From positions 17,920,001 through 17,984,000 of the forward strand of contig NC_087250.1 of assembly GCF_037042905.1 (NCBI RefSeq): DNA of 64,000 nt, read 5' to 3'. The notes under the pieces are model-generated. The model was not told where the DNA came from and made no database searches. It worked only from the letters and a program-made list of their open reading frames with translations. Position 1 is the stretch's first letter, and each line of letters opens with the position of its first letter. Positions 388 to 29,014 of the stretch are shown here, one piece after another. This stretch comes from Lytechinus pictus (Eukaryota). The translations under genes and the position numbers were made by a program.

Positions 388-636
388 CTCTGGCTATGTG
401 TTCTGCAGCATCGATGAAATTAAAAGCTTGAACCATTTCAAGCAACCTCAGCCTTGTTCCTCCTTGTTCGGCCCATTTCTGAAGCATTTTTAGTACCACC
501 CGTCGTATCGAGGCAGGTTCAAAGGTCAAAGATGAAGCCATCACCTGAAGAATTTCAGAAGCTGGCAGATCCAACCTTTGAGAGAGGTCGATGAGGTCTG
601 GAGTAGTCCGAATTTTGGCACAGATTTCACCAATGC
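388..636 (-). CDS. Paralog A: divergent death domain 4 exon
   Basis: LIDLSQRLDLPASEI..VLKMLQKWAEQGGTRLRLLEMV; phase 1-1; conserved in copy B. Confidence 0.72.
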
Positions 637-6600: not shown

Positions 6601-9600
6601 AACAATTTCTCAAATGATAAAGATCTTCGGGTTTTCAGAGCTGTTTTTATTTGGCGAATGAATTATAATTCTGAACTTATATGGAGCGACGATGTTTAAT
6701 ACTGACCGCTTCGTTTCCAGGTAGGTCGTTACACAACTGAAGATTAACTGCAAGCTCTTTTCCTCTTTCGATCCTGTATGGGACGTATGGAGTACAAATA
6801 AGTTGCTGTCGGATCACCTGTTGTTCAAGAGGAATCAGAACCCACCACTCCGCACAGTGGCCAATGTACAACTCAAGATGTTTCTTGTACAGTCTGCAGT
6901 ATGGTGGTTTGTCTGGTGAGCTGGATGATTGCTTCCTTAGAGTTTTCGGTAGATCTTGTTTTACCAATGCCGAAAAGAGAAAAGATCAATGGAATGAATT
7001 TCATCACGACTTTCAGAAAGTCACAATGGTTATTAACTGTATAATTATCAGAAACGGTATTATTAGTGACATAATTAGCTGCTGAAGGAAGCTAATGTAT
7101 TGAATGAAGACATTGCGGTGTTGATTTTTTTTTTTATAACAAACATGTGTACACGTTGGTATCAATAATGCACAAAGCATTTTCATTCATCTGTGTTTTG
7201 GAAACATTTTACATACCTTTATTTGGAATATATTTTACATACATTTAATTGTTTGGTTTAAAATTGATACTTTTTGTAATTATATCCATTCTTTCTAGCA
7301 CAAAGCTCAAAGAAGGGAGGATGTTACAATATCTGCATGTTTATGAGATTTGAGGAGCATGTAATGATCCTACCAAAAGAGGGCGCTACAAACCTTTAGT
7401 ACTTATAAAATGCTTCTCTCTCGACTATACAGAAGCTGTGTTATTCTGTTTGACTCTGACTCATAATATAACTTGAAACATGATGGCAGCGGTGAAAAGT
7501 TACATATTTCCGTAGAACAGTTATTGTTCTTCTGTCTGAACTCTATTATGCATCTGCAAACTGTGTTTTGACCTGGATTTCGCCAGCTTTCTGAGAGTCA
7601 TTCCTGCATGTGTCCCACATATGTAAGTCGGTGTACTGTTTTCTACATTCAGCATAGCTGCTATTAGTATTGGTGTGAATTACCATTCTGACTTACTGTT
7701 ACTACTGTTGATTGCATGATGACTGATAATCATAGTGATGGGTCTCCTTCCGAGCTTCCACATGGAGCTACTTTTGCTAAGCCTTCCATTCAACCCCTGG
7801 GCATTTTAATGCGTCTGCTGGGCATAATGTCGCAGAGGAGTGGAAAATGTGGAGCCAGCAATGGGAAAATTACTCTATTCTTACAAATCTCTCTCAACAA
7901 CCTGATCGTTATCAGACTGCCCTTCTCCTTCACAGTGTTGGACCGGAATGTCTTCGCGTCTACAATGGCATGAAATTTGCTACTGAGGCTGATAGCATCA
8001 AATGTTCTGTGATTATATGGACAAGTTTAACACACATTTCTTTGGGGAGAGCAGGGAATTCTTTGAGAGATTTAAATTCAACCAGCGCAATCAAGAGAGT
8101 GGTGAATCCATTGAGCAGTATGTCACGGTTCTTCTTATGATGAGCAAAACGTGTGGATTCTGTGACTTTATAAAAGACAAGCTGCTTGTTGATCGTGTCC
8201 TACTCGGTGTGCGTGATGATCGAATGAGAGAACTACTCATTTCGAGATCTGACCTTGACCTCACGACTGCTATAGACGTGTGTAAAGCTGTAGAGGCTAC
8301 TTCTGTCCAAATGAAAGCTCTGAGTCAAAAGAATGAAGACATACATAAAGTTGGACAGAGACATTTCCCAAAGTCTGGAAGAAAAAGAATAGCGCATAGA
8401 AACCAAAAGGGAAAGATCTACAGAAACGTAAATCAGAGGTTAAGAAGTGCAAGTTCTGTAACAGGGTTCATGAGATGAAAAAAGAGTCCTGTCCAGCATG
8501 GGGACAAAAGTGCAAAGCTTGCAGTAAGCCTAATCACTTCAAGGGATCTTCAGTGTGCAAGACGAGGAATGTTCACCATGTCGGAGATGATGACTACTCA
8601 TCCTCAGCTGAAAGCATTAGTTTTGTGCAAATTAATGCAGTGGATATGGACAAAGAGCCAATTATCTGTAACATGCTTATCAACAATCAGAGGGTACCGT
8701 TCCAACTGGACTCAGGTGCAACAGTGAATCTTCTTCCACAAAAGTATCTAAAAGAGGAGGATGTAGTTCAGAGTGCAAACATCCGTCTATCTATGTGGAA
8801 CAAAGCTATAACTCATGCTATTGGCAAGTGTAAGGTGATAACCAGAAATCCTGCTACTGGCAAGAAATACAAAGTTGAATACATTGTAGTAAAGGAAGAT
8901 CTACCTCCACTGTTGAGCAAAACAGCAGGGGAAAAGATGCAGCTCATTACTGTTCATTATGATTCCCTTGAGCTAGTACGCAGCATAGTTCCTGAGGACA
9001 TTGCTGAGATAATTCCTGACAAGCATCCTGATGTGTTCTCGTCTTCTTCAATTGGCACTCTGCCTGGAAGTCCTGTTCATCTGACAGTTACGAATGATGC
9101 AATGCCTACTGTTTGCCCAGCTAGAATCATCCATGAATCCTTGAAAGGCAAAGTAAAGGATGCACTTGATGATCTTCAGGCAAAAGACATCATCGAAGAA
9201 GTCAGCTCTCCAACTGATTGGGTAAATCAGATGGCTGTGGTGCAGAAAAAATCTGGTAAAGTACGTGTTTGTCTAGACCCCAGACCTCTCAACATCGTGC
9301 GTAAGAGGGAGCACTATCCCTTACCTGTCTTAGATGATATTCTACCTCAGCTTTTCAGATGCTACAGTCTTTTCAATCTGTGACTTGAAAGACGGATACC
9401 TTCACTGCAAGTTAGATGAAGAGTCTAGTTTACTGACGACTTTTGCCCCACCCTTGGGAAGGTACAGATGGAAACGTCTTCCATTTGGTTTGAAAGTCAG
9501 CAGTGAAATCTTCCAAAAGAGGCTTCACCAAGCACTTGATGGTCTTTCTGGAGTCCGCTGTGTGGCCGATGACATCATCATCTGGGGCAACAGTGACGCT

Positions 9601-12600
9601 GAGCATGATGCCCGACTGCATTGTCTACTGAAGAGATGTCAAGCTGTTGGCATTGTGTTGAACAAGGAGAAATGCCAGTTCCGACTGAAAGAAATCTCAT
9701 TCCTTGGCCACATAGTATCCAACTCTGTAATCAAACCTGATCCATCAAAGATCGAAGCTATCCTGAACATGAGCGATCCTTCCTGCAAAGATGACATCCA
9801 TCGTTTGCGTGGGATGGTAAACTACCTATCCAGATACCTACCTAAGTTATCAGATGTGATGAAACCTCTCAATGACTTGACGCATAACAACTCAGCGTGG
9901 ACTTGGGACTCCAACCACGACAAAGCTTTCAAGCTGTTGAAAGAGATGCTAGTGCAAGCACCTGTGTTGGCCTTCTACGATCATAGCAAACTGCTAGAAA
10001 TTCAGACTGATGCCAGCTCCACAGGCGTGGGTGCGGTTATGCTACAAGATGGTAGACCGATAGCCTATGCTAGCAGAATGCTGAGTGATGCTGAATCCAG
10101 ACACTCTGTCACTGAGAAAGAAATGCTTGGTATAGTATTTGCACTGGAGAAATGGAATCAATACACCTATGGCCGTGAAATAAATGTGTTCACTGACCAC
10201 AAACCTCTTGAAACCATCTGCAAGAAACACCTGGATAGAGCTCCAAAGCGTCTGCAAGGGTTACTGCTACGAGCTCTTGCATATGACATACAAGTGAGAT
10301 ATCTCAAGGGCAAGGAAAACGTTCTGGCTGATGTTCTTAGCCGTGCTTCTCTTCCCTATGAGAGTGGACAACATGATCTAGAAGTGGTGAATGATGTTAA
10401 CCACTTGGCACTCCCTGATGACAAGATAGCAGAGATAAAAAGACAGACTGCCAATGACCCTACTCTCTGCCAACTCAAAGACACCATTCTTGAAGGGTAA
10501 CCAGACCACAAGTCACAACTTCCTCAGTCACTCACCCCGTACTTTGGTTTCAGAGATGACCTTTCTGTCAGTGATGATCTAATCTTCAAGGGTGAACGGC
10601 TTGTAGTCCCAAAACAAGTCAGGCACAAAATGAAAGAGGAGTTACATCGTGGTCTCAATGGTGTCGAGTCAACTTTGAGGAGAGCTCGTGATCATCTCTA
10701 CTGGCCGGGCATGAGTAACGAAATCAAGGAATTTATTCAAACATGTGCCACATGCCGAGAAAACTCTATCTCACAGCCTGCCCAGCCTCTGATGTCGCAC
10801 CAGATTATTGACAGACCATGGGCCAAGAGAGGACTTGATATTTTCCATCATAGTAATGACACATATCTTATCATGGTCTGTTATTACTTAAACTTCTTTG
10901 AGATGGAAAAACTACAGAGGACAACTGCCCCTGCAGTCATCAAGAAACTGAAACACCAGTTTGGGAGATATGGAGTACCTGAAATCATCGTATCTGACAA
11001 TGGTCCTCCTTTCTCCTCTAACGAATTTGCTGAATTTGCCAAAAAGCTTGGAGTTAAGCATAATACCATCTCTCCATACAACAGCAAAGCTAATGGCAAA
11101 GCAGAGTCTGCTGTCAAGACTGCAAAAAGAGTACTTACAAGATGCAATGATACTGGAGATGATGTTGATCTAGCCTTAATACTCAACATTCGCAACACCC
11201 CTACACAAGGTATCCAGAGTAGTCCAGTCCAGAGATTCATGGGTCGTCGGACTCGTACTCTCCTCCCCACTTCGACTCGGTTGCTTGCACCTGATCGCAA
11301 CCCACAGGCTGATCTTGAGAGACTGAAAGAAAGCCAGAAACGTCAAGCAAAGTATTTCAACAGAGATACAAGAAAGTTGAAAGATCTCTCACCAGGAGCA
11401 ATAGGAGGAGTCAAGCCATTCAACAATGACAAGAAGTGGAAGAAAGCAGTTATCCTTAAGAAACTGGATGACCGTTCCTATGAAGTTCGCTGTGAGGGCC
11501 AGGTTCTCAGAAGGAACAGAGAACACCTCAGAGCCACATCTGAACCACAAGATGTACATGACACTGGTCCTGCTCTTTACAACTGGAGACGTTCTGATGG
11601 TAATCCTCAACCTGATGTACCAACTACTGAGCGCCATACTTCCCATACCAGGACCCAGATATCACAGACCGCGGATATCAACAGTCCGGAGAAGTCGCGT
11701 GATGCAAACTTGAATACCTCAGAAATGGAACCAACCAACCCAGCTTCCCTGAGACGATCTAGACGTCAGCGACGCGAACCGCTTAAGATGAGGGATTTTG
11801 TTACGTTTTGAACATTTAAACCGAAGAAGGAAAGAAAGTGAATGCTGAAATAAACAAACTGAACGCTAACATTTCTTAAACATTTTTTTTTTGCTTTAAC
11901 TCAAGCAAATTTTGAAGTCAGAACTGAACCAACAACCAACTCATCTATCAAATCGTTTATTTGGACTTATTTTTATGTTGTGAAATCAACCTGGACAATT
12001 TAACCTGGACTTTAAAATCATTTTGTTTGCAACCGGAAGAACTGTTTTGAACTCAATTATTATTTTTTTTGCAAGTATTATAATTGTGCAACTACAAAAA
12101 ATGTGAAAGTCTCATAAACTGGTATTTTGGACATATATTTTGGAAACATTTTACATACATTTAATTGTTTGGTTTAAAATTGATACTTTTTGTAATTATA
12201 TACATTTTTTCTAGCACAAAGCTCAAAGAAGGGAGGATGTTACAATATCTGCATGTTTATGAGATTTGAGGAGCATGTAATGATCTTGCCAAAAGAGGGC
12301 GCTACAAACCTTTAGTACTTATTAAATGCTTCTCTCTCGACTATACAGAAGCTGTGTTATTCTGTTTGACTCTGACTCATAATATAACTTGAAACAATTT
12401 GATGCAAGATAAAAGAGAAATGCATAGAAATACGCCTCGGTCAATGAAGGGCCGTGCCGGGAATCGAACCCCGAACTTTCAATGTGTAGTCGGGCGGCTT
12501 AGACCACTCGGCCACGACACCACGCCGTTAATAGTGAGAATGATTACGATCGATGCGACTTGTAATAACTTATTGTAATGATGATCTTAAAAATGTCAAA

Positions 12601-15600
12601 TTTGATATTTTGTAAGTAGCATCAAGGTCATTTTAAGAAAAAAAAAAGCCCCTATGCTTTACTGTTACCAACGATACGTTTATTGTCTTACTGCAATATC
12701 AGTCTTCGTAGACTTACCCTTGATTGAGTCCCACACACGACAAACGATGTCTGGTTTCACCTGCTCTGGATTGACGACCAAAGAAGAGTGTGGTATAGTG
12801 ATCTTAACAGGCTGGTTGAAGATCAAAGGTTGAGGGTCACACTTGATCCCATAACAGGCCATTGATTCTCCTTCAGTGATATCGATACCAGGATTGTCTC
12901 TTAGGATGGTTAGGGTGATCTGACAAGAAACATCAGGTGGAACCGCTCCAGGAGAAAGGTACATTGATATTCCAAGGTCTTCTAGATTGATTTCCTGACT
13001 AGAATTTCTGTTGACTTTGACCGAGGCATCAGAAGAGTTGGATAGCCGATCTGTGATACAAGGTGAACAACAAAGGTCATGGTACGAACAATATAGAAGA
13101 ACAAAACTGTATTTTAGGCAATGAAATAGAACAATTAACAAACATTTTCACAATATACATGATCGATGTATAGGCCTATCAAAAGATGGTATAAGCCTTG
13201 TGTTTTGATCTCGGCTATTCAAATTCAGTTCAAAATGGTTTATTTTTGGAATAAAAGAATCAATCGAGGCATAAAGACGAATGACAAAAGTTTTAACAAT
13301 TGTAGGTTAAAATCAATGAGGCAAGGCATATCGTACAGTATCACCAAACACAAAAGCACCAGTTATCACACAGCATAAGATGAACGATTACAGAACACTG
13401 ACCATACGACAAGACGTCAGCGAACACAATCAAAGAAAATAGCATTAAAAAATCTGCTAATATATAAACTACAAAGTTTTAGAATCAATATGATTCACAA
13501 GTATTCAGATATATGCAAAAAAATCAATGCTAAAATCAGAATATTGATTTCCAGATCTTAAAAAAGTATTAAGAATGGGAATGAATGGGAAGGTGACGCG
13601 AAAGGTGAAGTTGATAGGAATACGGGAAATGAATAAGGGAAAATGTATTGAGAGATTTAATATAAAAGTACATAGGAGGTAAAGTATTATGAGAAATGTT
13701 AGGAAGAATAACGAGAGCGAAAGGAAGAATAAGAACGAAAAGAGAGGAAGTGGAAGGGCAAGAAGAATCAAAGATGGAAGAACATTACTATATTAAACGA
13801 GAGGAAACAGGTAATTGAATGAAAAGACGGAAAAATTGAAATACAAAGTTAATATACATATAGTGGGAATATAGGTACAAACCACTTGTTCCTAATTTTA
13901 ATACACATTACAGTGCTATGTTTTTCGATGGACGGTCAGTAATAATAAATTGCAGTCATGTACGAAGACTTTGGTGACGATTTCGTGTTTTATTCAATGC
14001 TCTTACCTTTAGTAAACTGTACATCATCCAAGGAAGGTAATCTACAGTAAGCAATTAATACAAAATCATTGAACATCTAACATCAAATTGCGAAGTAATT
14101 ACAATTACTATATGAACTGCATTACAATCATTTAGAATATTCAAAAGAAAACCGTAATTTTTTATGGACTTCTGATGAAAATACATCAATGAAATGTATT
14201 CACATATTGTGTGCCTCTTTAAATTGCAAACTATGTGTTTTTAAGCTACACGAACTAATTAAACCCAGTGAATATTGAAAGGACAACATTCCAACAGAAA
14301 GACAGGTTGAATGATATAAGATAAACTCCACACGAGCATAACACTGAATATTTAATCAAAATCGGGTTTGAAATAAGGTTTTCTCTTTTAAAGTTTCGCT
14401 CGATTAAAAAGTATCATTTGTACAATATGCACATTCTGGTCGGTATGCAAAAGAGAGGACTGATGATGTCACCCACTTGCTATTTCCTTTGTATTTCATT
14501 ATATAAAATATTCCAGATTTTCTCCTTATTCTCATATGAAGAGAGGTTTCATTCCACCCCGAGCATGTGGTATTACCATTGCTTTAACAATTTTATGGTT
14601 CAGTTAGGATGGTGCTCATTGTCAAATCTGTAAAATTGAAATATTACACATTTCAAACAAAAAAAACATATAAAAGGAAGCGTTAAGGACATCATCGACT
14701 CTTTCATTCACATGACACTGACTTGTGCATATAACTTTTTTTTTTATGAAAAATAAGCAAATCTTCAAAATATCATATAATTTTACATTCGATTGTGATG
14801 AAATTTCCAATGTTGTGGTTGATTGATTTTTTTTCTGGGGTGGACTTGATCTTTGAAATGAAAATACATGTACTACAGAACCCGTTTGTACCGGAAATTT
14901 AGTTTAAACAAAATAATTGTTCACCTTGCCAATATCATCTGTCTGATCATTTCATCCTTTGCATAGTGGATTGGTAAGCAACCTGCTCCATCCTTAATAT
15001 CAATCCTGGCTCCATGTTCCAAGAGATAGAACACCAATGCCTTCTCAGGAGATAACCTGCCACTGTAGTATTTTTCGGATACCTGCAACGGATGAATAAC
15101 TTAGTTTGTGTGGTAATTATACATACAACCTTCAAATACCGATTTTTGAAAGGCTCAACGAAAATAAAAAATCATTGTATGAATTAAATATTAACTTTCT
15201 CACAAATTTAATAAAGTGAAAATAGTCTTATATGCTTTTTCATTATATCTTAATTGAATGTTATGCATCGTATTGCAATTAGCAGTGGATGCCGAAAATG
15301 CCATGATGATCAGTTGACTTAAATGTTTTAAAATCCAAGTGTGCACTGAAAATTGAGGCAAATGTATTTTACAAGACTAACCTTTCTGAGTGTTTCGGTG
15401 CCTTCAACATTCTGTTTCTTTTGGTAGCATAATTTGATAGCTTTATGAAGACATGTCTGACCGTCATTAGACTGTACATTGATATCAGATCCTTTAGCAA
15501 TCATCCTTTCAATGATGGATGTAAGTCCGTACATCACAGCTAGATGGATGGCCACTGAATCATTCTGGATTGACAAAATTATATAAACGTAGTAGGAAAA

Positions 15601-18600
15601 TTAGCATTCCTGTGAATGGTATTAGAAGCAGCATCAGTAAAATATTCGTCGTATATAAGATTGTATTAAACTTAAATTGTGAACTCTATATGGATGATAA
15701 TCAATGACCTTTGTTTTTCTTCAAGAGTTTTACTGCCTTTGATATATTCGATCAGCTGAGGGACATGCATGTCTGCAGGTATTAATTAAATTGTTAATAT
15801 AGTTTAAAGCCAGGCTTTTAAAGTTGTAATATGAAAGAGAGAAGAAGAATGATTAAACTTTTTTTTTTTCAAATTTGTATCAGTACTTTCGGTAAAATTT
15901 CCATGGGCGGTATTCTGAAAATTGTGTTAACTGTGGTGTGTTTGTGCTAACACGGTTTTCAGAATACCGCCCCAGGGTGTATGCATGACCTACCTTAGCA
16001 TTCAACTTGTCGATAAGCAGACCAGCAATGTCTCTATGCCCAAGGGTAATCGATTGATGTAAGGGTGTTTGGCCGCGAATGTCTTCTGTGTCACTACGTG
16101 CTCCACTTGTAAGCAGGAATTTAACAACGTCAATGTAACCATGCTGAACGGCGATGTGTAATGATGTTCTCCCTTCATTGTCTGCTTTATTCACCTCTAG
16201 AGGGTCATCTTTTGGGAGCAATGCGTGTTGATCTTCTGCGTTTCGATTCACCTCACCTGTAACACTGAGCAGATATTCGATGACGCCAAAACTGCAATTT
16301 GTTGCAGCACAGTGCAACACACTCCAGCCATTGGCTGTTCTTTTATTCACATCTGCTCCTTGGCTGATAAGGTATTTGATGACGTCATAATGAGCATTCT
16401 CAGCAGCATAGTGTAATGCAGCCCGACTATCTTTATCCCCCTTATTGACCTCAACTCGTTGACTGATCAGAAAATTGATGACGTCAATACGACCTTTCCA
16501 TGCAGCACGGTGTAATGCAGTCCGACAATCATTATCCTCTTTATTGACCTCAGCTCCCACACTGATCAGATATTTGATGACGTCAATGTGACCGTTCCAA
16601 GCAGCAGAGTGTAATGCAGTCCCACCACCATTATCCTCCTTATTGACCTCAGCTCCCTCACTGATCAGATATTTGATGACGTCAATATGACCGCTCAAAG
16701 CAGCATGGTGCAATGCAGTCTCACCACCATTATCCCCCTTATTCACCTCAGCTCCCTCACTGATCAGATATTTGATGACATCAATATGACTATTCCAAGC
16801 AGCACGGTGAAATGCAGTCAAACCATCATTATCCTCCTTCTTGACCTCAGCTCCCTCATTGATCAGATATTTGATGACGTCAATATGACCAATCTCAGCA
16901 GCACAGTGTAATGCAGTCTGACATTCATTACCCTCCTTATTAACCTCAGCTTCCTCACTGATCAGATATCTGATGACGTCAATATGACTATTCCAAGCAG
17001 CACGGTGTAATGCAGTCAAACCATCATTATCCTCCTTATTGACCTCAGCTCCTTCAGAGATCAGATATTTGATGATGTCAATATGACCATTGTTAGCAGC
17101 ACGGTGTAATGCAGTCAAACCAATATTATCCTCCTTATTGACCTCAGCTCCCTCAGTGATCAGATCTTTGATGACGTCAATATGACCGCTCAAAGCAGCA
17201 TGGTGTAATGCAGTCACACCACGATTACCTTCCTTATTGACCTCAGCTCCCTCACTGATCAGATATTTGATGACGTCAACATGACCGCTCCAAGCAGCAT
17301 GGCATAATGCAGTCCCACCTCGATTACCCTCCTTATTGACCTCAGCTCCCTCACTGATCAGATATTTGATGACGTCAGTATGACCACTGTTAGCAGCACG
17401 GTGTAATGCAGTCCCACCACGATTATCCTCCTTATTGATCTCAGCTCCATCACTGATCAAATATTTGATGACATCAATATAACCATTGTTAGCAGCACGG
17501 TGTAATGCATTCCCACCACGATTATCCTCCTTATTGACCTCAGCTCCCTCGCTGATCAGATATTTGATAACATCAATGTGACCGTTGCAAGCAGCACAGT
17601 GTAATGCATTCCAACCATCATTATCCTTCTTATTGACCTCAGCTCCCTCACTGATCAGGTATTTGATGACGTCAATATGACCGGGCCAATCAGCACGGTG
17701 TAATGCAGTCTGGCCATCTTTATCCTCCTTATTGACCTCAGCTCCCTCACTGATCAGATATTTGGTGACGTCAATATGACCATTGCTAGCAGCATATTGT
17801 AATGCCGTCCCACCACGTTTATCCTCCTTATTGACCTCAGCTCCCTCACTGACCAGATATTTGATGACATCAATATGACCACTGTTAGTAGCACGGTGTA
17901 ATGCAGTCCCACCACCATTATCCTCCTTATTGACCTCAGCTCCCTCATTTATCAGATATTTAATGACGTCAATGTGACCATTCTCAGTAGCACGGTGTAA
18001 AGCAGTCCCACAACCATTATCCTCCTTATTCACCTCAGCTCCCTCACTGATCAGATATTTGATGATGTCAATATGACCGTTCCAAGCAGCACGGTGTAAT
18101 GCAGTCCCACAACCATTATCTTCCATATTGATCTCAGCTCCCTCACTGATCAGATATTTGATGACGTCAATATGACCACTGTTTGCAGCACGGTGTAATG
18201 CAGTCACACCACGATTATCCTCCTTATTGACCTCAGCTCCCTCACTGACCAGATATTTGATGACATCAATATGACCACTGTTAGTAGCACGGTGTAATGC
18301 AGTCCCACCACCATTATCCTCCTTATTGACCTCAGCTCCCTCATTTATCAGATATTTAATGACGTCAATGTGACCATTCTCAGTAGCACGGTGTAAAGCA
18401 GTCCCACAACCATTATCCTCCCTATTCACCTCAGCTCCCTCACTGATCAGATATTTGATAACGTCTATATGACCACTCTCAGCAGCACGGTGTAATGCAG
18501 TCCCACAACCATTATCATCCTTATTGACCTCAGCTCCCTCACTGATCAGATATTTGATGACGTCAATATGACCGTTCCAAGCAGCACGGTGCAATGCAGT

Positions 18601-21600
18601 CCCACCACCATTATTCTCCTTATTGACCTCACCTCCTTCACTAACCATATATTTGATGACGTCAATATGACCGTTGTTAGCAGCAAGGTGTAATGCAGTC
18701 CAACCATTATTATCCTCCTTATTGACCTCAGCTCCCTCACTAACCATATATTTGATGACGTCAATATGACCGTTCGAAGCAGCAAGGTGTAATGCAGTCC
18801 CACCACCATTATTCTCCTTATTGATCTCAGCTCCCTCACTGATCAGATATTTGATGACGTCAATATGACCACTGTTAGCCGCATGGTGTAATGCAGTCAA
18901 ACCATTATTATCCTCCTTATTGACCTCAGCTCCCTCACTGATCAGGTATTTGATGACGTCAATATGACCTTTCAAAGCAGCACGGTGTAATGCAGTCCCA
19001 TCACCATTATCCTCCTTATTGATCTCAGCTCCCTCACTGATCAGATACTTGATGACGTCAATATGACCACTCTCAGCAGCACGGTGTAATGCAGTCCCAC
19101 AACCATTATCATCCTTATTGACCTCAGCTCCCTCACTGATCAGATATTTGATGACGTCAATATGACTGTTCCAAGCAGCATGGTGTAATGCAGTCAAACC
19201 ACGATTACCCTCCTTATTGACCTCAGCTCCCTCACTAATCAGATATTTGATGACCTCAATATGACCTTTCTCAGCAGCCAAGTGTAATGCAGTACCACCG
19301 CCGTTATCCCCCTTATTGACCTCAGCTCCCTCACTGATCAGATATTTGATGACGTCAATATGACGGTTCAAAGCAGCAGAGTGTAATGCAGTCCCACCAC
19401 CATTATCCTCCTTATTGACCTCAGCTCCCTCACTAATCAGATATTTGATGACGTCAATATGATCACTGTTTGCAGCACGGTGTAATGCAGTCACACCACG
19501 ATTATCCTCCTTATTGACCTCAGCTCCCTCACTGATCAGATATTTGATAACGTCTATATGACCACTCTCAGCAGCACGGTGTAATGCAGTCCCACAACCA
19601 TTATCATCCTTATTGACCTCAGCTCCCTCACTGATCAGATATTTGATGACGTCAATATGACTGTTCCAAGCAGCATGGTGTAATGCAGTCAAACCACGAT
19701 TACCCTCCTTATTGACCTCAGCTCCCTCACTAATCAGATATTTGATGACCTCAATATGACCTTTCTCAGCAGCCAAGTGTAATGCAGTACCACCGCCGTT
19801 ATCCTCCTTATTGACCTCAGCTCCCTCACTGATCAGATATTTGATGACGTCAATATGACGGTTCAAAGCAGCAGAGTGTAATGCAGTCCCACCACCATTA
19901 TCCTCCATATTGACCTCAGCTCCCTCACTGATCAGATATTTGATGACGTCAATATGACCACTGTTTGCAGCACGGTGTAATGCAGTCACACCATGATTAT
20001 CCTCCTTATTGACCTCAGCTCCCTCACTGATCAGATATTTGATAACGTCTATATGACCACTCTCAGCAGCACGGTGTAATGCAGTCCCACAACCATTATC
20101 ATCCTTATTGACCTCAGCTCCCTCACTGATCAGATATTTGATGACGTCAATATGACTGTTCCAAGCAGCATGGTGTAATGCAGTCAAACCACAATTACCC
20201 TCCTTATTGACCTCAGCTCCCTCACTGATAAGATATTTGATGACGTCAATATGACCGTTGCAAGCAGCACAGTTAAATGCATGCCAACCATCATTATCCT
20301 CCTTATTGACCTCAGCTCCCTCACTGATCAGATATTTGATGACGTCAATATGACCGTTGTTAGCAGCAAGGTGTAATGCAGTCCAACCATTATTATCCTC
20401 CTTATTGACCTCAGCTCCCTCACTAACCATATATTTGATGACGTCAATATGACCGTTCGAAGCAGCAAGGTGTAATGCAGTCCCACCACCATTATTCTCC
20501 TTATTGATCTCAGCTCCCTCACTGATCAGATATTTGATGACGTCAATATGACCACTGTTAGCCGCATGGTGTAATGCAGTCAAACCATTATTATCCTCCT
20601 TATTGACCTCAGCTCCCTCACTGATAAGATATTTGATGACGTCAATATGACCGTTCCAAGCAGCACGGTGCAATGCAGTCCCACCACCTTTATTCTCCTT
20701 ATTGACCTCACCTCCTTCACTAACCATATATTTGATGACGTCAATATGACCGTTGTTAGCAGCAAGGTGTAATGCAGTCCAACCATTATTATCCTCCTTA
20801 TTGACCTCAGCTCCCTCACTAACCATATATTTGATGACGTCAATATGACCGTTCGAAGCAGCAAGGTGTAATGCAGTCCCACCACCATTATTCTCCTTAT
20901 TGATCTCAGCTCCCTCACTGATCAGATATTTGATGACGTCAATATGACCACTGTTAGCCGCATGGTGTAATGCAGTCAAACCATTATTATCCTCCTTATT
21001 GACCTCAGCTCCCTCACTGATCAGGTATTTGATGACGTCAATATGACCTTTCAAAGCAGCACGGTGTAATGCAGTCCCATCACCATTATCCTCCTTATTG
21101 ATCTCAGCTCCCTCACTGATCAGATATTTGATGACGTCAATATGACCACTCTCAGCAGCACGGTGTAATGCAGTCCCACAACCATTATCATCCTTATTGA
21201 CCTCAGCTCCCTCACTGATCAGATATTTGATGACGTCAATATGACTGTTCCAAGCAGCAAGGTGTAATGCAGTCAAACCACGATTACCCTCCTTATTGAC
21301 CTCAGCTCCCTCACTGATCAGATATTTGATGACGTCAATATGACCACTGTTAGCAGCAAGGTGTAATGCAGTCCAACCATTATTATCCTCCTTATTGACC
21401 TCAGCTCCCTCACTTACCATATATTTGATGACGTCAATATGACCGTTCGAAGCAGCAAGGTGTAATGCAGTCCCACCACCATTATTCTCCTTAGTGATCT
21501 CATCTCCCTCACTGATCAGATATTTGATGACGTCAATATGACCACTGCTAGCCGCATGGTGTAATGCAGTCAAACCATTATTATTCTCCTTATTGACCTC

Positions 21601-23564
21601 AGCTCCCTCACTGATCAGGTATTTGATGACGTCAATATGACCTTTCAAAGCAGCACGGTGTAATGCAGTCCCACCACCATTATCCTCCTTATTGATCTCA
21701 GCTCCCTCACTGATCAGATATTTGATGACGTCAATATGACCACTGTTAGCCGCATGGTGTAAAGCAGTCAAACCATTGTTATTCTCCTTATTGACCTCAG
21801 CTCCCTCACTGATCAGGTATTTGATGACGTTAATATGACCTTTCAAAGCAGCACGGTGTAATGCAGTCTCACAACCATTATCCTCCTTATTGATCTCAGC
21901 TCCCTCACTGATCAGATATTTGATGACGTCAATATGACCGTTGTTAGCAGCAAGGTGTAATGCAGTCCCACCACCATTATTCTCCTTATTGATCTCAGCT
22001 CCCTCACTGATCAGATATTTGATGACGTCAATATGACCACTGTTAGCCGCATGGTGTAATGCAGTAAAACCATTATTATTCTCTTTATTGACCTCAGCTC
22101 CCTCACTGCTCAGGTATTTGATGATGTCAATATGACCACTGTTAGCCGCACGGTGTAATGGAGTCAAACCATTATTATCCTCCTTATTGACCTCAACTCC
22201 CTCACTGATCAGATATTTGATGACGTCAATATGACCGTTGTTAGCAGCATGGTGTAATGCAATCCCACCACCATTGTTCTCCTTATTGATCTCAGCCCCC
22301 TCACTGATGAGATATTTGATGACGTCAATATGACCACTGTTAGCCGCACGGTGTAGTGCAGTCCCACCACCATTATCCTCCGTATTGATCTCAGCTCCCT
22401 CACTGATCAGATATTTGATGACGTCAATATGACCACTGTTAGCCGCACGGTGTAATGCAGTCACACCACGATTATCCTCCTCATTGGCCTCAGCTCCCTC
22501 ACTGATCAGATATTTGATGACGTCAATATGACCGTTGTTAGCAGCATAGTGTAATGCAGTCCAACCATCATTATCATCCTTATTAACCTCAGCTCCGTCA
22601 CTGATCAGATATTTGATGACGTCAATATGACCATTGCTAGCAGCACGGTGTAGTGCAGTTCCACCATCATTATCCTCCTTATTGACCTCAGCTCCCTCAC
22701 TGATCAGATATTTGATGACGTCAATATGACCGAACAAAGCAGCAAGCTGTAATGCAGGCTCGCCTTCATTATCTTCCTTATTTACCTCAGCTCCCTCACT
22801 GATGAGATATTTGATGACGTCAATATGACCATTGTTAGCAGCAGGGTGTAATGCAGTCCCACCACCATTATCCTTCTTATTGACTTCAGCTCCCTCACTG
22901 ATCAGGTATTTGATGACGTCAATATGACCGTTGTTAGCAGCATAGTGTAAAGCAGTCCAACCATCATGATCCTCCTCATTGGCCTCAGCTCCCTCACTGA
23001 TCAGATATTTGATGACGTCAATATGACCGTTCCAAGCAGCACGGTGTAATGCAGTCCTACCACCATTATCCTCCTTATTGACCTCGGCTCCCCTCCTGGT
23101 CAGATATTTGATGAAGTCAATAGGACTGTACCAATAAGAACGGGGTAATGCATTCCCACCACCATTATCCTCCATATTGACCTCAGCTCCCTCACTGATC
23201 AGATATTTGATGACCTCAATATGACCTTTCTCAGCAGTCAAGTGTAATGCAGTACCACCGCCGTTATCCCCCTTATTGACCTCAGCTCCCTCACTGATCA
23301 GATATTTGATGACGTCAATATGAGATTTGTTAGTAGCACGGTGTAATGCAGTCCAACCATCATTATCCTCCTTATTGACCTCAGCTCCCTCACTGATCAG
23401 ATATTTGATGACCTCAATATGACCTTTCTCAGCAGCCAAGTGTTATGCAGTACCACCGCCGTTATCCCCCTTATTGACCTCAGCTCCCTCACTGATCAGA
23501 TATTTGATGACGTCCATATGACCGTGGAAAGCAGCCTTGCCTAGTGGAGTCCAAAAGGCCATAC
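388..23564 (-). CDS. Paralog A: multi-exon ankyrin-repeat / ZU5-UPA / multi-death-domain gene (3' end beyond left edge; early in-frame stop, possible null allele or pseudogene)
   Basis: 15 hand-spliced GT-AG exons with consistent phases: 15994-23564, 15382-15564, 14925-15082, 14007-14041, 12718-13050, 6707-6954, 5876-6004, 4529-4691, 4166-4211, 3519-3805, 2804-2819, 2282-2541, 1385-1513, 841-1134, 388-636. The last ten have identical lengths in paralog B. Confidence 0.85.
841..1134 (-). CDS. Paralog A: divergent death domain 3 exon
   Basis: ALELAKALRL..AWQLLHQLCRR (W at the conserved position in copy B); phase 1-1. Confidence 0.7.
1385..1513 (-). CDS. Paralog A: acidic linker exon
   Basis: DDENSDDVTPLEPDVNPDSSPQEPEKDEDEENEDWKIIEYSDS; cag acceptor, GTAGGA donor; 129 nt in both copies. 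Confidence 0.75.
1538..1808. mobile_element. Copy A-specific interspersed-repeat fragment
   Basis: Replaces about 59190..59272 of copy B; family not identified with certainty. Confidence 0.55.
2282..2541 (-). CDS. Paralog A: death domain 2 exon (preceded by 16-nt microexon 2804-2819)
   Basis: LLQFSRHINKEKFYEIGKQLGFDDLELQHIEH..ANIQMLSMWK; homologous to ORF 59723..59974. Confidence 0.85.
3519..3805 (-). CDS. Paralog A: death domain 1 exon
   Basis: FLTIAQTMDVNQFYDMGIALGFTIAELDRVEY..ATYDMLLAWRGRQ fits the death-domain pattern (LG..LGF...EI..I..MLxxW). Confidence 0.85.
4166..6954 (-). CDS. Paralog A: ZU5 end and UPA-like exons (6707-6954, 5876-6004, 4529-4691, 4166-4211)
   Basis: Open, phase-consistent exons conserved in paralog B; beta-rich sequence between ZU5 and a death domain, as in UNC5/PIDD/ankyrin ZU5-UPA-DD modules. 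The UPA name is inferred from position. Confidence 0.75.
4821..5464. mobile_element. MITE with ~115-bp TIRs, specific to copy A
   Basis: Inverted arms 4821-4933 and 5350-5464; absent from the homologous G-tract at about 62060-62073. Confidence 0.82.
7322..7480 (+). repeat. 5' LTR
   Basis: Matches 12238..12396 with 3 substitutions in 159 bp. Confidence 0.92.
7481..7494 (+). other. Primer-binding site, tRNA-Leu-like
   Basis: tgatggcagcggtg immediately after the LTR; one mismatch to TGGTGGCAGCGGTG, the complement of a tRNA-Leu 3' end. Confidence 0.75.
7716..11811 (+). pseudogene. gag-pol of the LTR element, fragmented
   Basis: Successive ORFs 7716, 7847, 8002, 8475, 9334 and 10630 in shifting frames encode consecutive gag, PR, RT, RH and IN pieces. 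Confidence 0.92.
12238..12396 (+). repeat. 3' LTR
   Basis: Preceded by PPT aaagaagggagga; TG..CA termini. Confidence 0.92.
12397..12521 (-). mobile_element. tRNA-derived SINE head, truncated at the LTR
   Basis: Minus strand has A box TGGCCGAGTGG and B box GTTCGATTCC with imperfect cloverleaf pairing. Confidence 0.7.
12718..13050 (-). CDS. Paralog A: first ZU5 domain exon
   Basis: GISMYLSPGAVP..ITLTI..GIKCDPQPLIFNQPVKITIPH matches the ZU5 pattern (IPxGA..C.P...F.xPV.L.IPH); GTAAGT donor. Confidence 0.85.
14007..14041 (-). CDS. Paralog A: 35-nt linker exon (LPSLDDVQFTK)
   Basis: tag acceptor, GTAAGA donor; phase 2 to 1 exactly bridges the flanking exons. Confidence 0.75.
14925..15564 (-). 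CDS. Paralog A: two C-terminal ankyrin exons (15382-15564, 14925-15082)
   Basis: NDSVAIHLAVMYG..GQTCLHKAIKL and VSEKYYSGRLSPEKALVFYLLEHGARIDIKDGAGCLPIHYAKDEMIRQMILAR; canonical splice sites, phases 0-0-2. Confidence 0.85.
15994..23564 (-). CDS. Giant ankyrin-repeat exon (76 repeats, 74 in unbroken 33-aa phase)
   Basis: 2519-aa ORF 15880..23439 of consensus GxTALHxAAxxGHIDVIKYLISEGAEVNKEDN; acceptor ctacag at 23565; donor GTAGGT after LNAK at 15993; ATG at 23562; TAA at 23443-23445. Confidence 0.93.
16250..23550 (-). repeat. Coding tandem array, 99-bp unit x 74
   Basis: Unit visible directly (ttattgacctcagctccctcactgatcagatatttgatgacgtcaatatgacc); unit count from the translation. Confidence 0.95.
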
Positions 23565-24734
23565 CTGTAGTTCCGAGAAAAAGAAATGTTTAATTTTTTG
23601 GATGTCATAGCTAGCTGTGTGAACCTTTTACTAATTGTTTTTCTGTTTGGTGCTAAAATGAAACCAGCCTTACAATGCATTATTCTAAAACTTTTGTAAA
23701 TTATTGTTTTTGGTTGGATATATGAATTACTTTTTAGAAAAGAAATAATTCAGATTATATGAACATCACAATTTTATGTTATTTTTAAAGGAACTATCAG
23801 CACAGTATCACATCACTAGATAAAGGTCCTATGTCAGGTATGATGTCAGATTTTACTCCGAGTCATCATGTTTTGGTAGATAGGATGTTTAACGATGTTA
23901 GGAAGAGGAAATTTTTACTTCATTTTTCAGAGTAAGAACACAACTCCTATTTTAAAAACCAAACTTTGTTTACCACCCCCCCCCCATGTATTCGATGCTA
24001 GCCAGGACTAACATGGAGTAATTTACATTGATATTAAACCGACATACACAGACTTTTATAGACCCAGAACAGAGCTACAAGCGAAATCTAAAAATGGAAA
24101 ATGTATAGGCCACAAAGGCTTGCAACGCCAACTCACGGCGTCACGGCGCGCGTTTTCGATCAATCCAAACTAACATAAATAAAGTATGAAAAAATAGATT
24201 CTTTCTTCTGTTAAGCATTTGCGAAATTTGTTCCTACTGAAAATGGAAGAGGGGGGGGGGTGAGTCAAATGTGGGGGCTGACCATGCACTCTCAAAACAA
24301 ATCAGTAACAAAATATGACTAGTTAATAGGGTCAGCTAGGTGTAACTGTTATTTTAGTCGTATATTTAACTATTTTATAGTCGTATTTTAATATAACAGT
24401 TATTTCTGACTAGAAGAGTGCGCGAAAAATAATAATAATAATAATAATAATAATAATTTACTTATATAGCGCATAATATTCGTGATCTCTATGCGCTTAA
24501 CAAATCAATTATTTATTACATAAGAAATCAAGCGAATTGTTAATATGGTTTTAATTAAATCAAAATATTATTCTACATTAAACTAAGTATTATGGTACAT
24601 TGAAATATACATTAAATTTACATTACACTGCATTCTATTTGCTAACACATGATAATATATTACATGAGATATCATTACATGGTATTAATTTGGTACTGAA
24701 CATATTGAGTAAAACTATATTAAAATATATTACG

Positions 24735-27700
24735 CTACAACAATGAAAAAAGATAGGTCTTGATTGATGTCTTGAAATTAGCTGTTGAGGTGGCTTCACG
24801 TAGTTGGGGTGGTAGAGAGTTCCATAAATGTGATGCAAGGGTGGTGAAGGCACGTTCTCCATAGTACTTGGTGTTGACTCTGGGAGTTTGGAGAAGGTTT
24901 AGATTGGCAGAACGGAGCTTTCTGTTAGGTACATAGAAATTGATGAGGTGTGAGATGTAGGAAGGAGAGTTACCATGCAATGCTTTAAAGACTAAGAGAA
25001 GGATTTTGTACTGGATACGTAGATGAATAGGAAGCCAATGGAGAGAGAGAAGAAGGGGTGTAATGTGCTCATGTCTGCGGGCCTTTAAGACTATCCTTGC
25101 GGCTATATTTTGAACCCGTTGAAGCTTCTTGATCTCTAAGTCAGGTAAATTTCCAAGCAGTGCATTGGATGAGTCCAGCCTCGAAGTCACAAATGCGTGA
25201 ACAAGCATTTCTGCAGTGCGCTGATCAAGATAGTCCCGAATGCCTCCTATCTTCCGAAGGGCCGCCATAGCTGAATTGAATATTCTATTTACATGGGCCT
25301 TCAAGGTAAAATGCTGATCAATCATGGCTCCGAGGTTTCGGGCAACTTCTCTACTGGGTATTTCTTCACCTCCTACGTGTATGCTGACATCGGGACAACA
25401 CCTCGAAAGGAACTTTGAGGTGAAATGTACTACCTCCGTCTTCTCGTCATTCATAGTCAGTTTGTTCATTGCAGACCACGCTCGGATGTCTCGGAGGCAG
25501 TTGTTGACTCTAGTAATGACAGAGTCTCTCTCGTCAGGACTGAAAATGCTGTAGACTTGGGTATCATCTGCATAGAACATGGATTCCATGTTATGGGCAC
25601 GGATGATGTCCTGTATGGGTGCGATATAGAGAGTAAAGAGGAGGGGGCCTATGACCGATCCCTGCGGGACTCCACATGCATCATCTACTTGTTTTGATAC
25701 AGCATTTCCAATCCTTACTGTATGACTGCGGCCATTCAGATAAGATTGTAACCAGTCAAGAACACTCCCGGAAAATCCGAAGCGTTGAGATAGTCTATCA
25801 ACCAGGATGGTATGGTCTATAGTATCAAATGCGGACGAATAGTCCAAAAGGACTAGTATAGCTTCCTTCTTTTGATCAAGTGCAAAAAGGATATCATTCT
25901 GTATGCGGAGGAGTGCTGTTTCAACGCTATGATGTGGTCGATACGCAGATTGTGTCTCTGCGTATAAGTCGTGGACAAGTAGATGATCTTGAATCTGCGT
26001 AACGACTGCCCTTTCTGTCACCTTGCATATATAGCTGATATTGGAAATTGGCCGGTAACTTGAGAGTTGCTCAGGAGGCAGAGAAGACTTTTTCAGCCGT
26101 GGGACCATGATGGACTTCTTCATATCTGATGGTACGATACCCGACTGAAGGCTCAAATTAACAATCTTTGTGACTGGATGAATGAGTTCAGGCAAGCATC
26201 TTTTAATGATAGATGTAGGCAGAGCATCAAGGTCGCATGTCGATGACGAAGTAGATTTGATGATACGTTTGATCTCTTCCTCTTGGACCAAATCAAACTC
26301 ATCGAATGTTGGACCGATGGGTTCGGAAACATCGACTGACAGTCTTTCATTTCTCTCTGAGACCAGAAGATTCTTCAGATTTCCTATTTTCTGCAAGAAG
26401 AAATCGGCAGATTCGTTTGCAAGCTTGCTAGCACAGTGATGCTCCGGAAGAACAGGTGTTACCTCAGGGGACGTAAGGTGATTAATGACCCGAAACAACT
26501 GCCTTTGATCAGAGTCCAATATCTTCTGCCGATAGTGCTGGACTCTGGTTTCTTTCAGGAGATCATTGTAGGCCTTGCACTTTGCAGCATAAATGTCTTT
26601 ATCAACCTGGAGTGAAGTCTTTATCATCTTCCTCTCTTGGCGTCTGCGTTGTTGCTTGGTTTTTCGAAGAGTATTCGTGTACCAAGGAGCATGGGGTCTA
26701 AGAATGACCTGCCTCTCACCTTTAGGAGCATGGTCATCAAGTTTCTTGCGCAGGTCGTTGTGATATTGAGAGATAAGAGACTCGAGGTTGTCTGATGGGT
26801 TCAAAAGCAATGAGCTTGAAGAAATGTCCTTACGAAAATGTTCAATGTCAATTGTCTTCATAAGCCTAGAAACTACAGCTTTCCTAACTGCCTTCGGTCT
26901 GGCCATTTGTATATGACAAGTGACTATGTGGTGATCAGATGGTAGTGGACTTGAAGCAGCTACATTTGAGACTAGATTGTCTTCAGACCGTGAGATGATA
27001 AGGTCTAAAGTATGTCCACTTTTGTGTGTTGCCGATTGCACATGGTTACTGAGACCTGTGTCAAGAAAAGTGGATGCATTCTGGTTCTCTTTGCTGTCCA
27101 CATGCAGGTTGAAATCCCCGACGAGGAGAACTTTACCACTTAGCGACTGTATCGTTTCCAGCAGTGACGAGAATTCCCGGAAGAATGTTCCAGGTGTTTG
27201 CACATTCTTCTTGCTGCAGGGTGGCCTATAAAGAACAATCAGACGTAGCTGGCATGTCGACGAAGTCGAAAGTGTCAAATCAATGTATTCAAAAGAGGAG
27301 AACTTAGCCAAGCCATTCTGATGGACATTAAATCCTTTGTGAAGTAGGACACCGACTCCACCCCCATTCGAACCACGAGGAATGTGATAGATATTAAAAT
27401 GAGGCAATGTCCTTTGGATAGTGGCCACAGCTTGATCATCTCTCTCTGAATCAGTGAGCCATGTTTCTGTCACTGCTATGGCATCAATGTGGTTGCTAAT
27501 AACAAAGTCGCATAAGGCTGATGCCTTTCCACGTGCTTTGAGAGACCTTGCATTCCATAATGCGAATCGTATAGGCGATACTCGAGGATCTGATGGTATC
27601 CTTGTTGGTATGATAAGATTCATCCTGTTTATTCCTCGATTAGGGCCTGCAGGTCGAAAAGAACATTCTCTGTGATCACATGGTAGAGGCCTTAGTGGTT

Positions 27701-28157
27701 TCGCATGGGTCCCAGAAAGTTTTCTGTTTACCCCACCACGGCTTTTTCGCACTCGGGCTATGTTAAGATCATTCAGCCTTTTCCAATGTTGATCTTCCAG
27801 TCTATTCAATGGACTATTTCTAATTGTCCGCTTGATATTGAATAGCTCCTTCTTGGTGTAGCGCTGGACCATAGTATAAGACCCATTGTCGGAGCACTGG
27901 TTCGTGATATAAGACCCATTGTCGTAGCCTTGGACCGTGTTATAAGACCCATTGTCGTAGAGCTGAGCCATGCTATAAGTCCCATTGTCAATGATGATCA
28001 TTAAGGTTGATCTACATAAAAGAGCAAGGACAATGGAAGCCCAACTTGAGTCACCTTGTACAAGCATGAGTGATCGTTGCTGAAAAAATGGCTCTCTGGT
28101 AGGGTGCTTTCCAAGGCCAACTCTGGGGAGGCTTATCAGGCAGTCCTGTGTGAACAA
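24735..28157 (-). CDS. LINE ORF2: AP-endonuclease and reverse transcriptase
   Basis: 1140-aa ORF with WNARSL, TETW, GDFN, TLDL, SDH, YRPIS, QSAYR, GVPQGS, YADD and C-terminal LHWLP. Confidence 0.95.
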   Translation of the reverse strand: MFTQDCLISLPRVGLGKHPTREPFFQQRSLMLVQGDSSWASIVLALLCRSTLMIIIDNGTYSMAQLYDNGSYNTVQGYDNGSYITNQCSDNGSYTMVQRYTKKELFNIKRTIRNSPLNRLEDQHWKRLNDLNIARVRKSRGGVNRKLSGTHAKPLRPLPCDHRECSFRPAGPNRGINRMNLIIPTRIPSDPRVSPIRFALWNARSLKARGKASALCDFVISNHIDAIAVTETWLTDSERDDQAVATIQRTLPHFNIYHIPRGSNGGGVGVLLHKGFNVHQNGLAKFSSFEYIDLTLSTSSTCQLRLIVLYRPPCSKKNVQTPGTFFREFSSLLETIQSLSGKVLLVGDFNLHVDSKENQNASTFLDTGLSNHVQSATHKSGHTLDLIISRSEDNLVSNVAASSPLPSDHHIVTCHIQMARPKAVRKAVVSRLMKTIDIEHFRKDISSSSLLLNPSDNLESLISQYHNDLRKKLDDHAPKGERQVILRPHAPWYTNTLRKTKQQRRRQERKMIKTSLQVDKDIYAAKCKAYNDLLKETRVQHYRQKILDSDQRQLFRVINHLTSPEVTPVLPEHHCASKLANESADFFLQKIGNLKNLLVSERNERLSVDVSEPIGPTFDEFDLVQEEEIKRIIKSTSSSTCDLDALPTSIIKRCLPELIHPVTKIVNLSLQSGIVPSDMKKSIMVPRLKKSSLPPEQLSSYRPISNISYICKVTERAVVTQIQDHLLVHDLYAETQSAYRPHHSVETALLRIQNDILFALDQKKEAILVLLDYSSAFDTIDHTILVDRLSQRFGFSGSVLDWLQSYLNGRSHTVRIGNAVSKQVDDACGVPQGSVIGPLLFTLYIAPIQDIIRAHNMESMFYADDTQVYSIFSPDERDSVITRVNNCLRDIRAWSAMNKLTMNDEKTEVVHFTSKFLSRCCPDVSIHVGGEEIPSREVARNLGAMIDQHFTLKAHVNRIFNSAMAALRKIGGIRDYLDQRTAEMLVHAFVTSRLDSSNALLGNLPDLEIKKLQRVQNIAARIVLKARRHEHITPLLLSLHWLPIHLRIQYKILLLVFKALHGNSPSYISHLINFYVPNRKLRSANLNLLQTPRVNTKYYGERAFTTLASHLWNSLPPQLREATSTANFKTSIKTYLFSLL
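27858..27989 (-). repeat. 33-bp coding tandem repeat x4 (DNGSYxxxQxY)
   Basis: Seen in DNA (ataagacccattgtc) and in the protein. Confidence 0.9.
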
Positions 28158-29014
28158 ATATTCTGACCAGGCCGTCTAGTACCTCAAATTTCTGCAGACA
28201 CAATTCTCCGTAATACAAAAAATGACTGAGAATTCTTCATAAAAAAGTTCCAGTATGCTCAATAAGTAAATATTACATCAAAAATATAAGTTCCTGAGTG
28301 TTAGTCAACGAAAAAACAGAATTTTAGGCACAGAAATCTTAAGCGGTCATAAAAGACCCTGCTGCCAGAGTGGTGGCGCTACAATAACAATCAGATGGTC
28401 ATTTTTACTTTTTTGTACACGGTTTTGGAAAAAGTGGAGTGGGGGCTGAGGCCCCCTCAACCCCCCCCCCCCCGGTTCCGCAGCCCCTTCAAACATATGG
28501 AACCATGTTTATTTGTACACGTATGTAGGAATTATATGTACACAAGAAATTGAAGAGTGAAATTGACAAATCAAATACCAATCGAAAGATAATAAGCTAC
28601 ACAACAAGGCAAACAATGCTTTCAGGCTGAGTATTTAGCCTAAGAAAAGCCCCGATAAGCGGACCTTTATTATGCTTATCAACAGCCTTGACATCATTCT
28701 TTGATTATGTTTGCCCACAATAATGGATGATTAAATATTTTTGCTTCACGGATTGCGCTTTTGATGTACCTCACTTCTATCGCATACATAACAAATAATA
28801 GATGATACCTATACACAGCTTTAGACTAGAAATGCTTTCCATGTTTTGCCAAACTTATTTGGCGCAACTTTGTATTCCGGGGGGGGGGGGTACTTCCATT
28901 GACGACTGAATACCATGCGCGACCATGGGGTCTCGAAAAGCACCCTAAATACTTATTTTCCATATTAATGAAAATGCACCCCTTAACAAGTATTGGCGTG
29001 TGAAACCCTACCCA

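Follow-up and report, generated by a model that had tools for sequence, protein, structure and literature searches.

The ankyrin array on the minus strand of the window analysed here (64,000 nucleotides from Lytechinus pictus, a sea urchin, contig NC_087250.1, positions 17,920,001 to 17,984,000) is, on balance, probably a disabled copy within a gene family whose single-exon arrays are duplicated in blocks and likely recombined, whose predicted groove sites are likely kept diverse by diversifying or balancing selection, and whose products would join a variable cytoplasmic binder to ZU5-UPA and death domains.

The array exon (15994..23564, minus strand) holds 76 repeats. Seventy-four units stand in a strict 99-bp register, comprising an N-cap unit, 71 units (23475 to 16447) and two more; a 19-residue insert after the 74th unit leads into two C-terminal repeats. 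As the register is unbroken, there are no introns within the array. TRF returned a period of 99 with 72.5 copies, 86% matches and 0 indels, and a minus-strand stop-to-stop frame of 2520 codons (23442-15883) is built of the same 99-bp ankyrin units. A preliminary description of this DNA had counted 74 units, a figure that proved exact for those in register, with two end repeats to be added. It had also placed everything in one 7.57-kb exon: length and lack of introns agree (7571 nt from a putative acceptor at 23564 to the GT donor after 15994, with the first ATG at 23562), but the exon is not a single open frame, and its 5' boundary is uncertain because the intact paralogue in L013 reads CTACAT where this copy reads CTACAG. 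Mean unit DNA identity is 87% and the best 100-aa self-match is 100%, so that the array shows high internal conservation (HIC) by the measure given in the accessible part of PMC4986451 (at least 85% identity across 100 aa). Positions within the unit are numbered below as N1 K E D N G6 G G8 T A L H R13 A A N16 N17 G H I D V I K Y L I S E G A E V33.

Stop codon, downstream gene and recent history of this copy

An in-frame TAA (23443..23445, minus strand) interrupts unit 2 at codon 40 from the ATG, where sister units carry TTA for the Leu of TALH. The preliminary description had missed it; the frame from the array ATG is therefore broken in this copy, which makes it a poor candidate for a working receptor. 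The allele would yield a 39-residue peptide or, through re-initiation at unit 5, a protein of ~3,600 residues lacking the N-cap. Unit 5 (23080..23178, minus strand), where translation past the stop meets its first ATG (23175, context AAT ATG G), is a diverged repeat with 17 differences from the unit consensus and a Pro in helix 1. Roughly twelve private substitutions, among which transversions are numerous, crowd into ~60 bases of it; units 3, 4 and 6 are near consensus, and the same odd unit is present in an older RefSeq model, P0001.

It is rather unlikely that the allele still functions by leakage or re-initiation to the unit-5 ATG, with an almost full-length protein as the result. The TAA is the only lesion found, all exons downstream of the array being open when aligned to the intact paralogue P0132 (one stop at the 3' edge of an aligned piece was taken as intron); the frame upstream is just 39 codons, and around the unit-5 ATG there is an A at -3 and a G at +4. 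Such a product would nevertheless have lost its N-cap and would start in the helix-breaking unit 5, a LINE sits 870 bp upstream, and the current RefSeq model (XP_054757107.2, P0006) begins only in ZU5 and ends with the second death domain. P0001 does begin at the unit-5 Met, but the next ATG is the default pick of gene predictors. The array copy is more likely broken than re-initiating, and as a whole this copy is likely disabled or truncated at its N terminus.

P0001 agrees with units 5-8 at 103 of 105 residues and has the array end in common with this copy, but similarity in the downstream exons is lower, at 87-97%. It may represent another haplotype that escaped conversion, and a separate paralogue or a misassembly is possible. 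Because it starts at the first ATG past the TAA, and intact models start at the first ATG of the exon, it provides indirect evidence that the stop is real. This, together with the shared residues from unit 5 onwards (odd unit included), bears against the very improbable explanation that the stop or the array length is a consensus error in a tandem repeat. Identical twins, found for 16 of 72 units, would invite such an error, but there are 0 indels over 74 units, 60 of 69 units are distinct, and duplicated blocks differ by 4-6 bases.

Downstream of the array the gene continues, still on the minus strand, with a small ankyrin-like exon (15382..15564; open, AG/GT ends), a family-diagnostic linker or ankyrin-like exon (14925..15082) that served as query for a genome census, a 35-nt micro-exon encoding LPSLDDVQFTK (14007..14041, matching P0132) and the first exon of ZU5 domain 1 (12718..13050; Pfam ZU5 E 4.9e-11), the ZU5 exon being 100% identical to L. 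pictus P0006. Searching with P0132 (tblastn) located four exons within 4165..6958 (~6958-6700, 6004-5875, 4695-4530 and 4212-4165), assigned to the end of ZU5-1 and to a UPA that drew no Pfam hit and is labelled from its position. Four death-domain-like exons (~3810-3520, 2540-2283, 1135-836 and 637-386) and an acidic linker exon (1514-1386) occupy 386..3810, and the gene then runs past the window start into L025, which holds ZU5-2, UPA and the last death domain. P0132 (XP_063956520.1, 2337 aa) maps exon by exon onto the window plus L025, and through it the architecture can be read as ANK array, two small exons, ZU5-UPA, four death-like domains, ZU5-UPA and death domain, with the UPA labels and some death domains assigned by position. 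Neither P0132 nor its relatives gave a Pfam hit to a NACHT or NB-ARC NTPase, and no enzyme effector was found. The window also contains, at 53573..63598 (minus strand), the 3' half of the tandem paralogue that comes next, from the ZU5 end through death domains to ZU5-UPA-DD; the array of that paralogue lies in L012.

Sequence comparison across 1817..16100 gave 97.5-99.1% identity, introns included, to a paralogue ~145 kb away (L032, L033, L013), and this tract is likely the outcome of gene conversion or an unequal crossover in the recent past. In the 5' flank, similarity to L012 is 92-97% and to L013 84-90%, and the near-identical effector halves carry arrays of 76 units in this copy versus ~32 in L013. 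The LINE upstream of the array (24437..28382, minus strand; ~870 bp from the array ATG) has an open 1146-codon endonuclease/RT frame and an ATT tail, is absent at the matching place in L012 and L013, and likely inserted recently.

Other mobile or repeated sequence is scattered through the window. An intronic Gypsy-type LTR retrotransposon (7222..12396, plus strand), also in the L012 and L013 genes, occupies the same intron of three tandem paralogues (L026, L027, L037, L012; L033) at 96-99% identity, and its coding region in the window is split over four frames. A second LINE-like element (44411-47161, plus strand) has endonuclease and RT in two separate frames. An 830-bp element with long inverted arms (58092-58924) lies in an intron of the upstream paralogue, and copies related to it occur at 39702-40091, in L014 and in L023. 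A 42-bp tandem repeat of 3.7 copies (34458-34613) falls inside a 172-codon plus-strand frame with no Pfam match.

Variation, shuffling and likely selection within the array

Variation was scored on 60 distinct units, 69 of the 71 internal units having been kept and the stop-bearing unit and diverged unit 5 dropped. Entropy reaches 2.2, 2.3, 2.1, 2.3 and 1.7 bits at positions 6, 8, 13, 16 and 17 and does not exceed 1.05 at any other position; the corresponding pN values are 0.47, 0.47, 0.46, 0.65 and 0.31, set against an array-wide pS of 0.149 and a framework pN/pS of 0.41 (positions 18-33, the same value being given for the other 26 codons). This concentration at five positions rules out uniform variation along the unit. 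The framework had been called nearly invariant, and columns 18-33 and 1 do carry the consensus residue in 47-60 of 60 units; likewise all eleven pairs named as occurring before GH were recovered. The further positions named as variable are so, but the list had omitted position 6, which is equally variable, and the Cys that it put directly before TALH is at position 7. The diversity on offer is small, with 6-8 residues per variable site, the consensus residue in about half of the units at each, and 41 five-site faces among the 60 distinct units.

An AlphaFold model of 10 units, built from a single sequence, has a pLDDT of 93 and a TM score of 0.94 to ankyrin-1. In this model helix 1 spans unit positions 10-17 and helix 2 positions 20-28, with sites 13, 16 and 17 in helix 1 and sites 6 and 8 in the preceding loop. 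From alignment and literature, the variable sites are predicted to lie on the groove, or binding face, of the ankyrin fold. The preliminary description had equated them with the positions randomised in DARPins, and this applies to four of the five (6, 8, 16 and 17, in hairpin and first helix). Library-type repeats of the DARPin PDB 6mol_A vary at unit positions 3, 5, 6, 8, 16, 17 and 29 around a consensus-like framework similar to that of the urchin array, and keep Leu at 13. The urchin array by contrast varies position 13, which is not a classical randomised site, holds positions 3, 5 and 29 mostly fixed (E in 50/60 units at 3, N in 56/60 at 5), and uses just 6-8 residues per site. The accessible part of PMC4687027, whose hairpin numbering mapped poorly onto the unit numbering, treats as mutable in DARPins the residue that precedes TPLH and the two that precede GH, and does not list the second Leu of GXTPLHLA among mutable residues.

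Duplication of whole blocks of units is clear. Units 24-30 recur as 45-51 (seven units, offset 21, with 4 differences in 693 nt) and units 35-40 as 40-45 (six units, offset 5, 6 differences); ten duplicated unit runs were found in the array, and for 37 of 72 units another unit differs by no more than 2 nt. Evidence for recombination within units is modest: all 8 tested pairs of variable codons show four-gamete combinations (1-17 per pair), but association between variable codons persists in 6 of the 8 (p <0.05) and a test for decay of incompatibility with distance between near pairs was not significant (p 0.54), so that within-unit shuffling appears limited. No unit (0/72) is within 2 nt of any unit in L011, L012 or L013, and units lie 13.1 and 13.5 nt from those of L012 and L013, versus 12.2 nt within the array. 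The main codon alleles (e.g. AAC, TGG and GAG at codon 16) are nonetheless common to L012 and L013, which suggests that groove alleles are old variants, retained and reshuffled, rather than products of fresh hypermutation. The shuffling proposed at the outset thus holds for blocks of units, which have been duplicated and recombined, but is limited within them.

Quiet third positions argue against local mutation hotspots at the variable codons. Heterozygosity at the fourfold third positions of codons 6, 8 and 13 is 0.19, 0.16 and 0.10, compared with 0.33-0.64 at positions 1-2 of the same codons, and does not exceed 0.21 at any of the 14 fourfold sites. Among MG94-type site models, M2a was preferred over M1a (2dL 26.8, omega2 2.76), with posteriors of at least 0.97 for sites 8, 13, 16 and 17 and 0.74 for site 6; omega was 1.55 at six DARPin sites chosen a priori and 0.50 for the rest. 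Omega values of 7-13 from site models on a framework-only tree were discarded as inflated by the mismatched tree. CpG decay was likewise rejected: the framework CpG at codons 21/22 is retained in 50/60 units, codon 13 retains CG in 29/60 (18 of the 31 changes there not being CpG transitions), CpG does not occur at positions 1-2 of codons 8 and 16, and pS-matched nulls with CpG x8 left the gap open.

Since the units recombine, arrays were also simulated under recombining nulls with omega of at most 1. Of 652 such nulls matched for pS (0.11-0.19), none attained the observed top-five ratio, the largest top-five pN being 0.346 as against 0.472 observed, nor did any of 700 growth-type nulls. Unmatched equilibrium nulls did so in 33 of 290 cases, and attained the a-priori ratio in 9 of 290. 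In 3 of 34 nulls the tree-based omega came out at 1.52 or more, and the nominal p of 0.001 is therefore too small, although none reached a 2dL matching the observed 9.8 (negative 2dL values in these runs being optimiser noise); the a-priori comparison is itself slightly lenient, because DARPin position 5 had an omega of 0.35 in nulls.

The family offers a second line of comparison. Among 28 arrays with enough units, pN exceeds pS at the six a-priori sites in 26 (13/13 in a first set, with ratios of 1.11-3.28, and 13/15 in a further set), with framework ratios of 0.36-0.79. Having ancestry and unit pools in common, these arrays do not count as independent replicates; any unit lying >20-22 nt from the consensus of its own array was dropped, and L014, L050, L051 and L055 went unscored with too few units. 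In a second cluster on the same contig (L015, L017, L018, L021, L019+L020) the top variable sites are 4 and 16, with 3, 5 and 8, and 13 is mostly fixed. Each cluster thus varies its own subset of the binding face.

Under neutral concerted evolution the framework would be purified, the groove positions would merely tolerate change and tandem turnover would do the rest, an explanation we regard as unlikely. Weak constraint at the same positions in ankyrin repeats generally, as the accessible part of PMC4687027 reports, is in keeping with it, as are the 3-11% of unmatched equilibrium nulls that attain the observed ratios, the stop in this copy, and the ratios near 1 in the most diverged arrays (0.82 in L044, 0.86 in L057 and 1.01 in L056). 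Tolerance, however, predicts pN close to pS, and pN is 2-4x pS at the five sites and above the third positions of the same codons; neither pS-matched nor growth-type nulls reproduce the top-five ratio; and alleles two or three bases apart (AAC, TGG, GAG and TTG at codon 16) persist across genes. Diversifying selection, as the preliminary description had proposed, is thus supported in that pN exceeds pS at groove sites and CpG decay is not the cause, but the signal of the single array weakens under recombining nulls. Selection for difference at the groove is likely, with this array taken alone lending it only moderate support.

The gene family and systems that resemble it

The genome census with the linker exon gave 43 matches, of which 38 have at least 58% identity over nearly its full length, and 38 family loci is a lower bound. 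Six family genes stand in tandem here, with ~29, 76, 20, 32, at least 77 and 8 units, and family arrays span 8 to at least 93 units, such that this array is long but not unique. Equally long or longer arrays occur in L038 (at least 77 units), L047 (76) and L019+L020 (at least 93); no stop turned up in the examined portion of L038 or of L019+L020, which would suit functional studies better. Three of 30 other arrays (L039, L047 and L053) are interrupted internally by a stop or a change of frame, a minimum count as ten arrays run past the stretch compared; an apparent stop in L021 was set aside because it lies before the start, and L041 and L042 had no units in the stretch examined. Relatives occur in L. 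variegatus (XP_041467272.1, P0003) and S. purpuratus (XP_011677994.1, P0026). These and P0132, predicted echinoid ANK-ZU5-DD proteins that are automatic, uncharacterised RefSeq models, share the exon order and belong to the same family, and this copy differs from them in its longer array and the stop in unit 2. It has the layout of the echinoid ANK-ZU5-UPA-DD family (single-exon array, two small linker exons, ZU5-UPA and death domains), though not an intact frame from the array ATG. In L. pictus P0023, a family-type ankyrin array with the same linker exon (63% identity) leads into a TIR-like end instead of ZU5-UPA-DD (Pfam E 8e-6; 26.8 bits, below the cut-off of 28; Atlas 0.91), which suggests exchange of effectors in the family.

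No study of a sea urchin ankyrin/ZU5/death-domain family was found in a literature search of main texts that were mostly open-access, and the accessible parts of PMC8195603, PMC10855541, PMC5100051, PMC2453315 and PMC10542815 contain nothing on an echinoid ANK-ZU5-DD family. The review PMC8229355, in its accessible part, gives 33 as the largest repeat count known to it. The preliminary description had compared the array with the hypervariable repeats of fungal NLRs. In the accessible text of PMC4986451 (Dyrka et al.), the ANK repeats of these proteins have five positively selected positions, on the inner helix and hairpin, and are polymorphic in number; that of PMC13449251 (Ament-Velasquez and Saupe) adds balancing selection, repeat exchange, pseudogenes and the presence of HIC NLRs in animals, plants and bacteria. 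As far as these texts go, the urchin array resembles fungal HIC NLRs (Podospora Pa_3_8560, HET-E/D) in its near-identical repeats, in five varied ANK positions on inner helix and hairpin, in repeat-number variation (here between paralogues), and in its pseudogenes and nearby transposons; where the fungal genes exchange repeats between paralogues, the urchin genes share a unit pool and codon alleles. It differs in lacking a NACHT or NB-ARC domain, in an effector side that reads ZU5-UPA-DDx4-ZU5-UPA-DD, and in an N-terminal array of 76 repeats, where 7 to >16 are reported for Podospora ANK loci. The analogy therefore extends to the manner of evolution, but not to the NTPase.

On the effector side, UNC5B, PIDD1, CARD8/NLRP1 FIIND and ankyrin-R/B/G likewise have ZU5 followed by death-fold domains, with a UPA between them assigned by position in the urchin gene (PMC3210808, accessible part), and in PIDD (LRR) and ankyrins (ANK) the ZU5-UPA-death unit also follows a repeat array. 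The urchin gene departs from all of these in having two ZU5-UPA modules set apart by four death domains, and in an array that is homogenised and differs in length between paralogues. The HFS/SFS motif described for PIDD, Nup98 and CARD8 (PMC3210808, accessible part) is absent from both of its ZU5 modules, which read LYIGHCAEWW (HCA at the HFS position) and FSTRHLQYF (HLQ); the equivalent stretch of P0051, a relative further removed, reads IYLEHFSEF, as matched by eye.

A structural or scaffolding protein like ankyrin-R/B/G (ANK-ZU5-UPA-DD), with several self partners or acting as a spring or ruler, and with endogenous ligands behind the varied face, is decidedly improbable. Canonical ankyrins do use the same domain vocabulary, and the best solved-structure matches are ankyrin-1/2 and NOMPC. 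Their layout, ~24 conserved repeats followed by tandem ZU5-ZU5-UPA-DD, is nevertheless not that of a gene with 76 homogenised repeats and ZU5s separated by UPA and four death domains. Tandem paralogues here range from 8 to at least 77 units, against mechanical arrays that hold repeat number fixed (TRP-N, in the accessible part of PMC5100051), and a family of at least 38 loci, with lesions in some arrays and a TIR-like end in P0023, fits a scaffold poorly.

A possible family of sensors

The explanation that we favour, of a selected and variable binder, can be set out as a series of steps. A single-exon array is duplicated in blocks and likely recombines, both inside one gene and with the genes next to it; the framework would be homogenised by unequal crossover and gene conversion; and selection, diversifying or balancing, would keep groove alleles from being lost. 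In the cytoplasm the array would serve as a variable binder, joined to signalling modules made up of ZU5-UPA and death domains; a ligand, for which a pathogen or non-self protein is the likeliest guess, would bind along the concave face such that the death domains cluster or are released, as has been proposed for ZU5-UPA-DD proteins. Signalling may resemble that of UNC5B, PIDD and CARD8 by analogy, but without self-cleavage. Even a disabled copy could still donate units to its neighbours.

An immune or non-self ligand for the family, suggested by the death and TIR effectors and a birth-and-death pattern, seems plausible, if somewhat short of probable. Bolder, and doubtful as it stands, is the proposal of a receptor system diversified in the germline, in which at least 38 NTPase-free genes would form a natural binder library, balanced groove alleles would be recombined, arrays would be swapped onto death-domain or TIR halves, and broken copies would donate units. 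Such a system would require birth-and-death and the swapping of modules, and both are seen in the stop, the upstream LINE and the converted 3' half of this copy. Concerted evolution combined with diversifying selection on a repeat groove is already known from fungal NLRs, and HIC NLRs have been reported from a wider range (PMC13449251, accessible part). If the sea urchin family is indeed a sensor, it would add an NTPase-free, repeat-shuffling class of receptor to deuterostome innate immunity, and would represent nature's own equivalent of a DARPin library, with position 13 in use and position 5 fixed; the intact neighbours matter more than this copy.
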